Shown here: positions 4,617 to 36,899 of the stretch, piece by piece | Layout: every line of letters begins with the position of its first letter | Numbering within the stretch: position 1 is the first letter of the stretch | Assembly: GCA_030550775.1 (NCBI GenBank) | Contig: JAUQOS010000004.1 | Span: 1-53,084 of the forward strand | Length of the DNA stretch: 53,084 bases | Reading direction: 5' to 3' | Source: Armatimonadota bacterium | Lineage (GTDB): Bacteria > Armatimonadota > Fimbriimonadia > Fimbriimonadales > GBS-DC | The notes under the pieces: generated by a model | Databases searched by the model: none | Told to the model about the DNA's origin: nothing | What the model saw: only the letters and a program-made list of their open reading frames with translations | Position numbers and translations under genes: made by a program

Positions 4617-5939
4617 ATGCGACTCATCTGGGCGTTACTGTGGGGGTTATCAGTGTTAGCGGTCGGGGCGCAGACGCCTCGCCCGGTGTATTACATCCAG
4701 TTCAAGGAAATCGTGCATCGCGCGTCGGCGGATTACCTGATGCGGGCGCACGCAGATGCCGTCAAAGCCAACGCTGCCGCGTTTCTGGTGTTGCTGGATA
4801 CGCCCGGCGGCGAGTTGCAAGCCACGCGCGATATTACCACTACCTTGCTGAACAGTTCCATCCCGGTGATTGTATTTGTCTATCCATCAGGTGCGCGGGC
4901 GGGTTCGGCAGGTGTGTTCATTACGGTGTCGGCGAACATCGCGGCGATGGCGCCTGGCACCAACATCGGCGCGGCAACACCCGTCTCGGGCAGTGGCGAA
5001 GATATCCCACAAGACCTCAAACGTAAGGTGATGAACGACACTATCGCCTATGCGAAAACTATCGCCAAGCAGCGCGGGCGCAATGTGGATTGGGTCGTGA
5101 AAGCCGTAACAGAAGCAGCCTCTATTACGGAAACGGAGGCACTCGAAAAGCGTGTGATCGATGTGGTGGCGTTCAGCCCCCAGGAGTTGTTAGCGAAAGT
5201 CGACGGGCGTAAAGTGCAGGTGGCGGACGGGCAGACTGTGGTGCTGCGCGCGCGCAACGCGCCGCTGGTGGAGGTGCCCAAAACCTGGCGCGAGACGCTG
5301 CTGATGTTTTTGGCGCATCCGAATGTGTTTTACATCCTGATGCTGTTAGCAATCTACGGCTTGCTGGGCGAACTGCAAAACCCAGGCGCGACTTTTCCAG
5401 GCGTGATTGGCATTATTGCGTTGCTGTTGGCGCTTTATGCAGCGTCGGTACTGCCCGTGAATGTGTTGGGCATTGCGCTGATTCTGCTGGCGTTTGCGAT
5501 GTTTGTGGCTGAACTGTTCACCTCCTCGCATGGCATTCTCACGGCGGGCGCGTTGGTGTCGTTCACGATCGGCTCAATCATTCTGTTCCAGTCCGATTCG
5601 CCTGTGTTTCGCGTGAGTTTGTGGCTCATCGGTGCGATGACAGTACTTACAGGCGTGCTGTTTGTGTTTGTGGCATATTCTGGCATTCGGGCGCAGTTTC
5701 GTCGCAAGGTTAGCGGGCAGGAACGGCTGATTGGCATGACGGGGCGCGCCCGCACGCGCTTGGACCCTGAAGGCATGGTGTTTGTGGATGGCACGCTGTG
5801 GCGTGCCATCGCGCTAGATCCGCCGATTGAGGAGGGCGAGCTGGTGCAGGTGGATCGCGTGGATGGGCTGACGCTCTATGTGCGGTGGCAGCCCGCGCCT
5901 GCCATGCCTGAGAGTACCGAGCGACGCACTGCCGTCTAA
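4617..5939 (+). CDS. nfeD: NfeD family membrane-bound ClpP-class serine protease (long form)
   Basis: LDTPGG, RAGSAG and MAPGTNIGAATP motifs, TM domain, C-terminal OB fold (G.V.VDG.LWRA). Confidence 0.92.
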   Translation: MRLIWALLWGLSVLAVGAQTPRPVYYIQFKEIVHRASADYLMRAHADAVKANAAAFLVLLDTPGGELQATRDITTTLLNSSIPVIVFVYPSGARAGSAGVFITVSANIAAMAPGTNIGAATPVSGSGEDIPQDLKRKVMNDTIAYAKTIAKQRGRNVDWVVKAVTEAASITETEALEKRVIDVVAFSPQELLAKVDGRKVQVADGQTVVLRARNAPLVEVPKTWRETLLMFLAHPNVFYILMLLAIYGLLGELQNPGATFPGVIGIIALLLALYAASVLPVNVLGIALILLAFAMFVAELFTSSHGILTAGALVSFTIGSIILFQSDSPVFRVSLWLIGAMTVLTGVLFVFVAYSGIRAQFRRKVSGQERLIGMTGRARTRLDPEGMVFVDGTLWRAIALDPPIEEGELVQVDRVDGLTLYVRWQPAPAMPESTERRTAV

Positions 5940-6808: not shown

Positions 6809-8269
6809 ATGCCTGCGATGAAGCGTTCGACAGTAGCCTACCTGCGCTGGGGCGCGCTTGTGGTGGGTCCGCTGCTTGGTTTGATGCCGTTTGTAATCGC
6901 GCCGCCCCCAGCGCTTAGCCCTGAAGCGTGGCGACTGGTGGGGCTAACGCTGTGGATGGCAGTGTGGTGGTTCTCCGAGTGCGTGCCCATTCCTGCCACG
7001 GCACTATTGCCGCTAGTGTGGATGCCGTTTGCGGGCATTGCCGAAGAAAAACAAGTGGCAGCGCGCTACGCCGACCCGGTGATTTTCTTGTTTTTGGGCG
7101 GTTTCATCATCGCGCAGGGGATGCAGCAGTCGGGCTTGCACGAGCGGATAGCGCTGCGCATCGTGCGCAGCTTGGGGCGCACCCCCGAAGGGATGGTGGC
7201 GGGCTTCATGGCTGCGACCGCGTTCACCTCGATGTGGATCAACAACACCTCCACCACGATGATGATGTTCGCGGTGGCGCTGTCAGTAGCCGAGTGGGTG
7301 CGGAACGCATCTGGAAAGGGCAACGCGCATAATTTCATCTTGGCGCTGATGCTAGGCGTGGCTTATGCAGCATCTATTGGCGGAGTGGGCACACTAATTG
7401 GCACCGCACCAAACGCCCTGCTGGCGGGCTTCCTGCGCGAAAACTACAACTTCAATCTTTCAATGCTCAACTGGCTGAGTGTGGGGCTGCCGTTTGTGGG
7501 GCTGATGCTGCCGTTTACCTGGTGGTGGCTCACGCGCGTGCAGTTCTCGTGCCGCAATCTCAACTTCGCGCCCCTGCTGGAGATGCTAGAAACCCAGACG
7601 AACCGCTCCTCACGGTGGAGTTTGGCAGAAAAGGGCATCGCATGGGTGTTTGGCTACGCGGTGCTCGGTTGGCTGTCGCGCGAATGGTTGGGGCGCGCCA
7701 CCGGGCTTGCGGTTTCCGACGCGTTCATCGCGATGAGCGCAGCGCTGATGCTGTTTGTGCTGCCTGCCAACACCAAGCCCTATAAGCCGATATTAGACTG
7801 GCGTGCCGTCGAAAGCCTGCCGTGGGGGGTGCTGATTTTGTTCGGCGGTGGGCTGGCGTTAGCCAGCGCGTTCGAAAGCACGGGGTTGGCGAAAGTGATA
7901 GGTAATGCAGTGAGCGCGTGGGGCAACCTGCCTGTGTGGGTCGTGGTGTTGGGCGTGGCGACACTGATTATCTTCCTCACCGAGCTGACATCTAACACCG
8001 CTACCACCGCCACCTTCTTACCAATTGTGAGTGCGGCTGCAGTGGGCATGGGCGTTGACCCGCGCCTGCTAGCAATTCCTGTGGCAGTGGGAGCGTCGGC
8101 GGCGTTTATGTTGCCCGTCGCGACGCCCCCCAACGCAATCGTGTTCGCCTCTGGCGAAATCAAAATCAGTGAGATGGCACGCGCAGGGCTTGCGCTCAAC
8201 CTCTACTGCATCATCACCGTAACGCTTCTCACGCTTACCACCGCACGCTGGGGCTTGGGCATTCCGTAG
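6809..8269 (+). CDS. DASS/SLC13 family sodium:dicarboxylate symporter
   Basis: SMWINNT and TELTSNT (SNT-like) motifs, GTLIGTAPN, AFMLPVATPPNAIVF. Confidence 0.93.
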   Translation: MPAMKRSTVAYLRWGALVVGPLLGLMPFVIAPPPALSPEAWRLVGLTLWMAVWWFSECVPIPATALLPLVWMPFAGIAEEKQVAARYADPVIFLFLGGFIIAQGMQQSGLHERIALRIVRSLGRTPEGMVAGFMAATAFTSMWINNTSTTMMMFAVALSVAEWVRNASGKGNAHNFILALMLGVAYAASIGGVGTLIGTAPNALLAGFLRENYNFNLSMLNWLSVGLPFVGLMLPFTWWWLTRVQFSCRNLNFAPLLEMLETQTNRSSRWSLAEKGIAWVFGYAVLGWLSREWLGRATGLAVSDAFIAMSAALMLFVLPANTKPYKPILDWRAVESLPWGVLILFGGGLALASAFESTGLAKVIGNAVSAWGNLPVWVVVLGVATLIIFLTELTSNTATTATFLPIVSAAAVGMGVDPRLLAIPVAVGASAAFMLPVATPPNAIVFASGEIKISEMARAGLALNLYCIITVTLLTLTTARWGLGIP

Positions 8270-8277
8270 CCGTTCGG

Positions 8278-8432
8278 AAAAAAAAACCAGCGACGCTGTC
8301 GAAAGGAGGATCAAAGCCCAGCGCCGCTGACATCTACCGAATTCGCCCTGTTGGTTCACCCTCGCAGGGTGTTCCACCCTAAACAGACTCCAAAACACCC
8401 GCAAACCGGACAGGACTCGCGGGAAAACGGCC
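8278..8432 (-). ncRNA. Candidate small RNA with anti-SD loop and intrinsic terminator
   Basis: No credible ORF. Minus strand has two hairpins, then an 11-bp stem (with a G-U pair) whose loop holds GAUCCUCCUUUC, then 9 U. 5' end uncertain. Confidence 0.5.
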
Positions 8433-8474
8433 ACTGACTTACAAATTGCGACGGATGCACGTCCGCTCGAAACC

Positions 8475-8509
8475 GAAACCGCCCCGTGGGGGACAGACGG
8501 GGCGGTTTC
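8475..8509. terminator. 13-bp hairpin downstream of the E2 gene
   Basis: GAAACCGCCCCGT-N9-ACGGGGCGGTTTC perfect inverted repeat. Confidence 0.7.
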
Positions 8510-34997: not shown

Positions 34998-36899
34998 ATG
35001 CGAGCAGGAGTGCTATTGTTGGTAGCGACGACTTTAGTGGCGCTGGCGTGGACGCAGTTCCGTGATGTGCCGCGTCAGCACTGGGCGTATCGCGCCATTC
35101 GCGAGTTGGCGGAGTTAGGCATTCTGGAAGGGTTTCCTGACCGCACCTTCCAGCCTGAGCGCACGATGACCCGCGCCGAGTTTGCGCAAGCCGTCGCGCG
35201 TGCCTACCGCGTGGTAGAGGAGCGTATCCGCGCGTTGGAGACGCGCCTTGCCGAGCGTACTGATGAAACTACGCAGCCTACCCCCGAAGAGCGTCAGCTG
35301 CAGGAGCTGCGTCAAGCCCTGCAAGAGTTGCTGCAACTTCGTACCGCGATTGAAAACCTCCAACGCTTAGCGCAGGAGTTCGAACCCGAGTTGCGTGCGC
35401 AAGGCGAAAACCTGCGCGACCTGCGCCGCGACCTTGCCGCGTTGGAGACCCGCCTGCGCCGCGAGGAACGACGCCGTCAGCCGCTGCGCACCGACTTGAC
35501 CCTCGCTGTTTTCGGCACCCATAGCTACGACAAGCGCAGCGCGTACACCCTCAGCGGGCGCGAAATCAACCCCTCGGGCAAGTTTCTGCAAAGCGTCAGC
35601 GTGTTGCACGAGTTGGGGCTGTCGCTGGATGTGCCTGTGAACGACCAAGTGGATGCCAAAGCAACCCTTATCTTCGGCAACTACTTGCCTTACACTCCTG
35701 ACGCCACGCGCCTTGCCGACATCGTGCGCAGCGACAAGACCACACAGCGCGTGGGGCAAACCGACTTCACTGTGTGGGAAGCCTACGTTAGTACTCCGCT
35801 TGAGCTGTTCGGCTTGCCTGTGCAAGCGCAGATTGGGCGCGTGCCTCTCAAACTCACACCCTACACCCTGCAACGGATTGAACCCGACCACTACTTGGAG
35901 TTTGAGCGCTACCGCGACCGAGCCCACCGCGCCGATGGTGCGCTGCTGAACTTTGGGCAGGGCGCGTTCACAGGACAGCTATTCTTAGTCAGTAGCGTAG
36001 GCGTGCGCGGTAATGTGGGGCGGTTCTTACCCATCTATTTTGCCAACCACAACGCCTCTGTGAGCGCGCCCGCAGACCAAATGGCAGGCATCCGCTTAGC
36101 ATATCAGTTTGACCTAACGGGCTACCCCGTGCAGGTAGGCGCGACGTACTTTGCAGCGGGGGTGGGGCGCAACCGCGATTTTCGCCACCTGAACAACACC
36201 CCGCGCAACGGAATTGACCGCGTGGATGTGCTGGGCTTTGATCTCCAAAGCACAATCAGCGAAGTAGAAGTGCGCTTCGAGTATGCTGTTAGCAACTTGC
36301 TGCGCGGCGACAGCCGCGTGGTGGGCAGCAAGAATAAGGCATACGACCTCTATGCCCGCTATCGCTTCAACGAGCGGCTGGATGGGCAGGTGGGCTACCG
36401 CGAGATTGACCCTTATTTCGTGGCACCCGGCAACTGGGGGCGCATCGGTTACTTATACAACCCTTCCGATATCAAGGGCACCTACCTCGCGGTCAACTAC
36501 CAAGCCACCGATGCGCTGAATCTGCGCCTCGTAGCGGATATCTACACAGGGGCAGCCCGCTTGCCGCTTGCGCAGGGCTATCAGAGCCGTGACCGCCTGC
36601 GCCGCTTCCAACTGGAAGCAAACTACCGATATGCGCCGCGCTTGCAAGTGGGCGCCATCTACGAGAATGTCGGCTGGGACATCGCCCGCACGGGTGCGTT
36701 CGACTTTCGGCGGGGCAAGCCCGAATGGAACTACCTTACCCTGCGCGCCACCTATGACCTAAGCGAAAACTCTCAAGTGCACCTACTCTATCAATACATT
36801 AGCACCGATGGCAAGGGCATTGCGTTGCTGAGTGGCGGCCCTAGCTCCACAGGCAACCGTGCTGGCGTATTCGCCACGAGCCTGAGCTATCGGTTCTAA
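34998..36899 (+). CDS. SLH domain + coiled coil + beta-barrel outer-membrane protein (SlpA/OmpM-like)
   Basis: AAGGAGGAG SD; signal peptide; FRDVP..HWAY.AI..L...GI..GFPD.TF.P....TRAEFA SLH motif; heptad coil; beta-rich body ending ..YRF. Confidence 0.85.
   Translation: MRAGVLLLVATTLVALAWTQFRDVPRQHWAYRAIRELAELGILEGFPDRTFQPERTMTRAEFAQAVARAYRVVEERIRALETRLAERTDETTQPTPEERQLQELRQALQELLQLRTAIENLQRLAQEFEPELRAQGENLRDLRRDLAALETRLRREERRRQPLRTDLTLAVFGTHSYDKRSAYTLSGREINPSGKFLQSVSVLHELGLSLDVPVNDQVDAKATLIFGNYLPYTPDATRLADIVRSDKTTQRVGQTDFTVWEAYVSTPLELFGLPVQAQIGRVPLKLTPYTLQRIEPDHYLEFERYRDRAHRADGALLNFGQGAFTGQLFLVSSVGVRGNVGRFLPIYFANHNASVSAPADQMAGIRLAYQFDLTGYPVQVGATYFAAGVGRNRDFRHLNNTPRNGIDRVDVLGFDLQSTISEVEVRFEYAVSNLLRGDSRVVGSKNKAYDLYARYRFNERLDGQVGYREIDPYFVAPGNWGRIGYLYNPSDIKGTYLAVNYQATDALNLRLVADIYTGAARLPLAQGYQSRDRLRRFQLEANYRYAPRLQVGAIYENVGWDIARTGAFDFRRGKPEWNYLTLRATYDLSENSQVHLLYQYISTDGKGIALLSGGPSSTGNRAGVFATSLSYRF

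Follow-up and report, generated by a model that had tools for sequence, protein, structure and literature searches.

A conserved two-copy gene of an Armatimonadota bacterium for a predicted small RNA, probably under ECF sigma control, that would repress a class of surface-protein mRNAs by Shine-Dalgarno pairing

Pairing of a small RNA (sRNA) across a Shine-Dalgarno (SD) sequence is repressive, and RoxS is known alongside RsaE as an anti-SD sRNA with a UCCC motif. PEP-CTERM/exosortase proteins are widespread and have been linked to flocs and biofilms. Among the described systems, sRNAs dependent on sigma-E or another extracytoplasmic-function (ECF) sigma factor include MicA and RybB of E. coli, VrrA/MicV of Vibrio and FoxI/FoxJ of Fusobacterium (PMC11005410), while LhrC, under the control of the two-component system LisRK, carries three redundant UCCC sites spread over two loops and the linker (PMC4132741), and the cuckoo RNAs consist of 2-4 adjacent hairpins, each with CCUCCUCCC (PMC4615179). 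PEP-CTERM genes of Proteobacteria are controlled by PrsK/PrsR and a sigma-54 box, and more regulators and motifs were expected outside this group (PMC1569441).

The locus considered here lies in a 53,084-nucleotide stretch of DNA (the window), between the convergent genes for a DASS-family symporter and for E2 (dihydrolipoamide acyltransferase), and it probably represents a conserved two-copy sRNA gene, likely transcribed by an ECF sigma factor, whose product, by predicted SD pairing, would repress the translation of one specific class of surface-protein mRNAs. Features that mark ECF-dependent sRNAs are found in its sequence, namely a shared ECF-type promoter, a short terminated unit devoid of a conserved ORF, and predicted complementarity to the initiation regions of envelope mRNAs. 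As far as MicA, RybB, VrrA, FoxI and FoxJ are portrayed in PMC11005410, it resembles them in its ECF-type promoter, in being present as more than one RNA and in the predicted repression of abundant envelope-protein mRNAs. It differs from the sigma-E sRNAs covered there in its unrelated sequence (no Rfam match), in its predicted targets, which are PEP-CTERM- or dockerin-anchored proteins and not porins, in its seed, a terminator loop reading an extended SD, and in a sigma gene that is not flanked by an anti-sigma gene. With LhrC1-5 of Listeria, in the account of PMC4132741, it shares multiple copies of ~100-110 nt, a CU-rich terminator loop, here predicted to be directed at the SD of surface-protein mRNAs, and putative control by an envelope-stress regulator, but it combines a single CCUCC loop with a G-rich linker, lies behind an ECF-type promoter and contains no UCCC anywhere. 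As described for the cuckoo RNAs, RsaE and RNAIII (PMC4615179, PMC4132741), the anti-SD motif is kept in a hairpin loop while the stems are free to vary; unlike the cuckoo RNAs of that description, the sRNA has a single loop with CUUUG-N-CUCCUUUC and occurs in Armatimonadota. The PrsK/PrsR system, as presented in PMC1569441, likewise has a regulatory DNA motif common to PEP-CTERM genes, though here this motif takes the form of an ECF-type promoter, and an RNA belongs to the regulon. Neither a description of this sRNA nor any PEP-CTERM-linked sRNA was found in the literature searched, most subscription papers and preprint supplements lying outside that search.

Table 1. Features of the predicted sRNA gene and its surroundings (window coordinates).
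Feature	Position	Strand	Remarks
Predicted ~100-nt sRNA	8278..8378	-	Presumed to start ~7 nt past the -10 hexamer and to end with the U run
-35 hexamer TGTCCG, ECF-type promoter	8407..8412	-	T,G,C,C,G invariant in 29/29 aligned copies; putative promoter role
-10 hexamer GAGTCT, ECF-type promoter	8385..8390	-	G,A,T,C,T invariant in 29/29; putative promoter role
5' hairpin GGAA..CCCU-loop-AGGG..CC	about 8352..8376	-	Arms 8352-8362 / 8366-8376; sequence varies, structure kept
Conserved single-stranded linker AGGGCGAA	8342..8349	-	AGGGC invariant in 29/29; predicted second pairing site
Intrinsic terminator stem	8288..8329	-	Arms 8329-8319 CAGCGGCGCUG / 8298-8288 CAGCGUCGCUG; encloses the 20-nt loop
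20-nt loop GGCUUUGAUCCUCCUUUCGA	8299..8318	-	Carries GAUCCUCCUUUC; predicted seed AUCCUCCUUUC at 8311-8301
Nine-U run	8278..8286	-	Terminator tail; likely Hfq-binding end (Hfq use presumed)
E2 (dihydrolipoamide acyltransferase) gene-end hairpin	8475..8509	-	Context, outside the RNA
DASS-family symporter gene, convergent neighbour	6809..8269	+	TIGR00785, 294.5 bits vs cut-off 198.6

Several parts of the element had been pointed out in an earlier note on this DNA, and the terminator stem CAGCGGCGCUG/CAGCGUCGCUG with its minus-strand G-U pair, the 20-nt loop with GAUCCUCCUUUC, the nine U residues and the inner hairpin CACCCUgcgAGGGUG are all present as it claimed (Table 1). The hairpin CCCGCGAG..UUUGCGGG (8423-8398) and the outer CUGUU..AACAG stem, which it also took for parts of the RNA, overlap the TGTCCG and GAGTCT hexamers and have unconserved arms, and thus correspond to promoter DNA. 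Similarly, a 6S-like long hairpin or closing-stem riboswitch starting at 8438, suggested by one fold, was discarded, its 5' arm lying upstream of the promoter and being unconserved. Within the RNA, both sides have changed in 6 of the 12 pairs of the 5' hairpin (87.9% paired cells) and in 3 of the 10 pairs of the terminator stem (96.7% paired cells), while the loop segment CCUCCUUU stays ~90% unpaired in the folding ensemble and the seed AUCCUCCUUUC is the complement of the extended SD GAAAGGAGGAU. Taken as a whole, the stretch folds with an energy no better than that of shuffles (z = -0.83), so that support for a structured RNA comes from covariation. On these sequence features the element between the DASS and E2 genes is read as a real sRNA gene that is not in Rfam: at the gathering score, Rfam 15 gave 0 matches in the window and in 6 related loci (MicA, RybB, LhrC, RsaE, cuckoo members and 6S included), and down to E 10 it gave sub-threshold matches only, none of them spanning the element.

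Searching with the DNA of 8413-8279 returned matches elsewhere in the same genome and in relatives. Two of the matches in this genome lie on C92 and C111, contigs that share a 127-nt overlap, and therefore represent one locus, so that the genome has two copies. A covariance model matched strongly in 23 of 28 family genomes, with 1-3 copies each, the five genomes lacking a strong match being 65, 84, 85, 91 and 100% complete. Across 24 copies, and with the structure set by hand, 91.9% of the cells pair, 9 of 22 pairs have changed on both sides and 46 cells show double changes; the covariation score was reached by 0 of 500 shuffles, and slid controls pair at 36-54%. An unchanged 20-nt loop is seen in 40 of 44 rows, corresponding to 39 of 43 loci. 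As regards expression, three raw-read RNA runs contained 0, 0 and 1 read over the sRNA, 20 RNA runs contained a small share of the words, and RNA-library contigs over the copies of relatives mostly extend into the flanks, carry neither strand nor ends and have depths that do not rank the parts of the element; none of these observations is taken as a sign of expression or of habitat.

The absence of transcript ends from these contigs would suit a silent DNA repeat, a miniature mobile element or a stand-alone terminator, as would the location of several copies at contig ends and the fact that flanking genes differ among genera, the DASS/E2 site being occupied only in this genome among the loci compared, where DASS is not the nearest downstream gene of any other copy. 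Nonetheless, the copy number is steady at 1-3, not high and variable as expected of a MITE, the sites are syntenic inside genera, 4 copies scanned share neither terminal inverted repeats nor a flanking duplication, and viral contigs gave 0 matches to the sRNA. The conserved promoter, the covarying stems and the invariant loop rather argue for selection on an RNA, making a mere repeat highly improbable. A ~1.6-kb insertion does occur inside the 5' hairpin of one copy in G012 (L031:3200-4950), with a similar split in G010; it shows 17-bp terminal repeats and a 24-bp duplication corresponding to the hairpin, parts one copy from its promoter, and contains a 477-aa ORF with no Pfam match. Descent of the sRNA from this element as a MITE was considered and rejected, the element being a separate insertion with terminal repeats of its own. 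In the G020 copy (L048), unrelated DNA stands where the promoter would be.

Since the sRNA sits directly behind E2 on the same strand, it might also be a product of the 3' UTR of the E2 operon, an origin that the earlier note had contemplated, or else go back to the plus strand, as the remnant of a gene start or as a small ORF: in the A-run flank on that strand, many copies have an ATG from which a short ORF begins. E2, however, has its own hairpin, as had been noted, and this is seen in the E2 3' flanks of 8/8 displayed relatives (12 loci given), flanks from which the element is absent in all 8. The position of the sRNA behind E2 only in this genome, together with its own promoter, speaks against derivation from the E2 transcript. 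Regarding the plus strand, the ATG is missing from 5 of 14 copies shown, that of the window included, and, among 14 copies, 13 indeed lack a start codon 4-14 nt past the SD-like word GAAAGGAGG, the other having a GTG. The gap, described earlier as devoid of a credible ORF, is crossed by a single one (8069-8434, minus strand, 121 aa), which runs antisense into DASS; the 5' part of this ORF lies in DNA that is unconserved in other copies. Both the E2-derived and the gene-start origin are accordingly hard to believe.

The two promoter hexamers are separated by 16 nt of variable sequence. The pair TGTCCG/GAGTCT occurs at 14 sites genome-wide vs 0.13 expected, 13 of them with the 16-nt spacer, and these sites precede the 2 sRNA copies, 1 ECF sigma gene, 7 PEP-CTERM genes, 1 non-coding unit and 3 units cut by contig ends, in 2 of which a signal-peptide start is seen. 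Moreover, it is found upstream of 21/21 family orthologues of the ECF gene for which upstream DNA exists, and before none of 3 weaker matches to this gene outside the family. Of 38 sites in three relatives and one distant genome, the 30 read comprise 17 PEP-CTERM genes, 2 ECF genes and 11 others behind which the rule used found no SD-led ORF; among SD-led genes behind the motif in the three relatives, 17/19 are PEP-CTERM genes and 2/19 the ECF gene. The genome G018, 100% complete, is the one case in which the ECF orthologue, the motif and this sRNA type are missing together. A second joint loss, of the sigma factor and the sRNA promoter in G020, was dismissed because G020 keeps 5 promoter sites.

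There are 12 sigma region-4 matches over the cut-off in the genome, and by its autoregulatory position the ECF sigma factor encoded on contig C11 is the putative reader of the TGTCCG/GAGTCT motif. No anti-sigma gene lies beside it, its neighbours being an HD-domain response regulator and LemA, and among the groups listed in the ECF classification PMC7826278 none for this phylum shows TGTCCG/GAGTC. At G000:C100:17136-17280 (+) (L073), an ECF-type promoter leads into a non-coding unit of ~115 nt that contains ACCUCCU as well as a terminator-like hairpin and is possibly a further ECF-driven RNA.

The loop had been described in the earlier note as nearly the 16S rRNA 3' tail, and this stands for the shared CCUCC core but not for the two core ends, at which the sequences differ. 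The tail reads GAUCACCUCCUUUA in this genome (the 16S rRNA 3' end assembled at G000:C85:25665 (-) reads GATCACCTCCTTTA), so that the sRNA complement GAAAGGAGGAU departs from the 16S complement on both sides. Judged from the predicted pairings, it is these differences on both sides of CCUCC that carry target specificity. In a set of 2091 genes obtained with our own rough gene caller, with anchors recognized by regular expressions, 16 genes have the SD GAAAGGAG, whose G pairs with the sRNA and not with the 16S tail; a signal peptide is encoded by 14 of the 16, and a tail of PEP-CTERM or dockerin-like type likewise by 14, such tails being present in 2/22 genes with another base before AAAGGAG. 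By Pfam, the dockerin assignment exceeded the cut-off in 2 of 6 proteins tested and fell just under it in 1. Among 2033 start regions, of which 65 belong to anchored (PEP-CTERM or dockerin) genes, contiguous Watson-Crick matches to the loop of at least 9 nt lie before anchored genes in 11/14 cases and those of at least 10 nt in 8/9, the 16S-tail control giving 7/38 and 1/12, respectively. On average, the 16S tail also fits anchored genes better than other SD genes (p 2e-7), indicating that part of the target signal reflects strong SDs. The longest loop match (12 bp), which spans GAUC and the UUUG part, precedes a non-anchored gene, G000:C82:47700-47963 (-), whose product looks like a candidate ATP synthase subunit c.

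The same preference is seen in relatives. In G017, where 30 of 53 sites were read, ORFs of at least 100 aa behind GAAAGGAG encode a signal peptide in 12/15 cases, vs 2/6 for other bases. The word GAAAGGAGGAU precedes an ATG in 26 of 28 family genomes and in 9 of 31 others (G054 left out). The 58 distinct family sites read, drawn from 86 matches that include overlapping starts, comprise 44 PEP-CTERM and 4 dockerin genes, 4 further genes with a signal peptide and 6 of other kinds; they are not independent, 47 PEP-CTERM targets falling into 12 protein clusters. The SD GAAAGGAG is absent from all 17 PEP-CTERM genes that lie behind the ECF-type promoter in three relatives. In this genome, predicted seed energies of the ECF class lie between -7.1 and -11.8 kcal/mol and those of the target class between -14.7 and -18.7, a contrast that is partly circular because the target class was picked by motif. 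Sigma-70-type -10 boxes precede the three best targets, and a sigma-54-type motif precedes a fourth; of 7 other PEP-CTERM genes inspected, 3 have sigma-54-type motifs.

These distributions bear on another proposal of the earlier note, according to which the RNA would act on SD-led mRNAs in general, as a mimic of the 16S tail that damps all of them and spares leaderless ones. Loop matches of at least 7 nt are indeed found in 203/785 SD-led genes, and leaderless-type starts are common (243/2091 by a strict rule). Nevertheless, the loop and the 16S tail differ on either side of CCUCC, the long matches concentrate in anchored proteins, and the ECF-promoter genes and the ECF gene itself are SD-led, yet their predicted pairing is the weak one just given. 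Long complementarity is confined to a small surface-protein class with the extended SD GAAAGGAGG(AU), and general damping of SD-led mRNAs thus appears very unlikely. What the note said of an independent trans-acting translational repressor is retained as the predicted role, on account of the own promoter, the covarying stems, the invariant loop, the specific predicted targets and Hfq, which is encoded in the genome (PF17209, E 4.6e-28). An exosortase is encoded as well.

Where the related loop reads CUCUCCUUUC, the site GAAAGGAGA predominates over GAAAGGAGGAU (143 vs 11 in 31 genomes), the corresponding counts in this family being 57 vs 86. This GGAU/A shift is a single phylogenetic step and may reflect SD strength in thermophiles. 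Where the loop reads CUCUCCUUUC, AAAGGAG is followed by A in 6 of the 7 PEP-CTERM genes read, and in two distant genomes the rule of a preceding G fails (1/7). Other observations concern particular loci. One two-hairpin leader with GAAAGGAGGAU fronts unrelated PEP-CTERM coding sequences (L362, L364, L375, L378, L382, L386), which suggests leader reuse or coding-region exchange. At G000:C28:923-933 (+), the 3' UTR of a PEP-CTERM gene contains the seed AUCCUCCUUUC immediately past the stop codon and ahead of a terminator, possibly as a 3'-UTR-derived RNA. Finally, the flank 3' of an ECF-promoter PEP-CTERM gene (G000:C7, 15752-16438 (-)) includes a stretch complementary to the 3' stem of the sRNA and the end of its loop. 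A 12-nt core of this stretch is found at 4 places in the genome, of which 3 are sRNA rows; the stretch may reflect a sponge, a relic or chance.

The target leaders also suggest a second contact. A UUCGCC, UUUGCC, UUGCCC or UUCGCU hairpin loop is present in 30/44 PEP-CTERM target leaders vs 35/741 control leaders, and the variants retain pairing with the linker AGGGCGAA through G-U. We infer from this a two-site pairing in which the loop would contact the SD and the linker the leader loop. Linker-complement loops occur in 6 of the 12 protein clusters and in about 3 leader types, which leaves few independent cases; they are found in none of 10 dockerin targets of this genome, nor in the one GAAAGGAGGAU target read in G018, the genome without this sRNA type. 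As a stand-alone seed the linker was rejected (genome-wide contiguous match, p = 0.46) and is kept as a second site only.

The loop extends well beyond this sRNA. The covariance model returned 37 weaker matches, and all of the 25 read show a CUUUG-N2-CUCCUUU loop, a different stem and then U residues. The exact loop pattern occurs in at least 119 stretches across GTDB; among the matches listed, 80 are titled, and a hairpin is formed around it in 65/65 from Armatimonadota lineages (including two titled 'Bacterium HR', which we take to belong there), in 4/4 without a taxon in the title and in 4/11 from other taxa. On this distribution the organism would be placed in Armatimonadota, probably in Fimbriimonadales. 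Related loops of other families are closed by entirely different stems. By eye, most of the more distant members show a sigma-70-like -10 box, and no ECF or sigma-54 promoter pattern was found before 108 hairpin-forming ones among the matches listed. In G031, which belongs to another family, three copies of a related RNA (L116, L119, L120) lie behind a different ECF-like motif, GTGTCCG..AAAGCG.

A paralogous RNA of ~75 nt is located in the same genome at G000:C84:~35925-35997 (+) (L323), with a sigma-70-like -10 box, the tail GAGUUCACCUUCCUUCCU and the loop GCUUUGCUCUCCUUUCA. Its tail has a unique 15-nt match to the ribosome-binding site (RBS) of the ECF gene, the next best match being of 10, and from this pairing it is possible that the RNA stands in for an anti-sigma factor. 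It is also present in other classes of the phylum; an exact 12-mer of the tail was not found before an ECF gene in 5 genomes searched outside the family. In addition, a tiny unit behind an ECF-type promoter at G000:C21:~49745-49640 (-), also seen in G012 (L515) and G020 (L523), consists of GGAGAGUACCUUCCUUCCU plus a terminator, and GGAGAGUACCUUCCUUCCU is complementary to the ECF RBS, so that a negative-feedback RNA is probable by sequence. Upstream of the ECF promoter, at G000:C11:~5340-5420 (-), a TATAAT-led stretch holds a near-complete complement of the tiny RNA, GGAAGGTACTCTCC; its core occurs upstream of 19/21 ECF orthologues, and the stretch could be a long leader or a sponge.

This wider family raises the alternative of a real ECF-driven RNA whose loop serves as a structural or protein-binding module common to a phylum-wide RNA family, with GAAAGGAGGAU read by a protein or by a paralogous RNA and the sRNA itself serving as a sponge or stabiliser. 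Such a role would fit the loop core CUUUG-N2-3-CUCCUUU being common to RNAs with unrelated 5' parts and promoters, and the 5' half GCUUUG being kept phylum-wide while having no partner in most targets. It would also fit the retention of one GAAAGGAGGAU site in G018, which lacks this sRNA type, and the paralogue, whose loop also fits GAAAGGAG but whose obvious pairing strand is the 5' tail with its match to the ECF RBS. On the other hand, the family-specific AUC of the loop is exactly what GAAAGGAG-GAU requires, the best matches of the paralogue loop are no longer than 8-10 nt and show hardly any enrichment beyond 8 (2/6 at 9 or more), and the target leaders additionally bear the linker complement with its G-U-tolerant variants. 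The module is consequently considered unlikely, and direct pairing of the sRNA with its targets remains the preferred reading.

Under direct pairing, the ECF sigma factor of contig C11, once active, would transcribe its own gene, PEP-CTERM genes with ordinary SDs, and the sRNA. The loop seed AUCCUCCUUUC, probably with Hfq, would then pair with GAAAGGAGG(AU) on another set of surface-protein mRNAs, made from sigma-70- or sigma-54-type promoters, and in many PEP-CTERM targets the linker AGGGCGAA would probably pair in addition with the UUCGCC(C) loop of a 5' hairpin. Loading of the 30S subunit would thereby be blocked, and one surface-protein set would be swapped for another, or the export/exosortase pathway relieved. 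Since the coding arm of the ECF regulon belongs to the same protein class as the sRNA targets, a swap among paralogues is suggested. A broader picture, which is tentative and falls somewhat short of being probable, is that of a surface-coat switch written in an SD sub-code: an ECF-on set with plain SDs would be opposed to an RNA-off set marked by GAAAGGAGGAU plus UUCGCC and recognized at two sites, the sRNA would belong to a phylum-wide RNA family that keeps one loop while swapping 5' modules and promoters, and the ~75-nt paralogue and the tiny ECF-driven RNA would pair with the RBS of the sigma gene in place of a protein anti-sigma factor.

For a little-studied phylum, the analysis yields an ECF-type promoter consensus, a candidate sigma factor, an RNA and a list of named predicted targets. 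Regarding the specificity of anti-SD RNAs, one or two bases beyond the 16S-pairing core would mark the regulated class.
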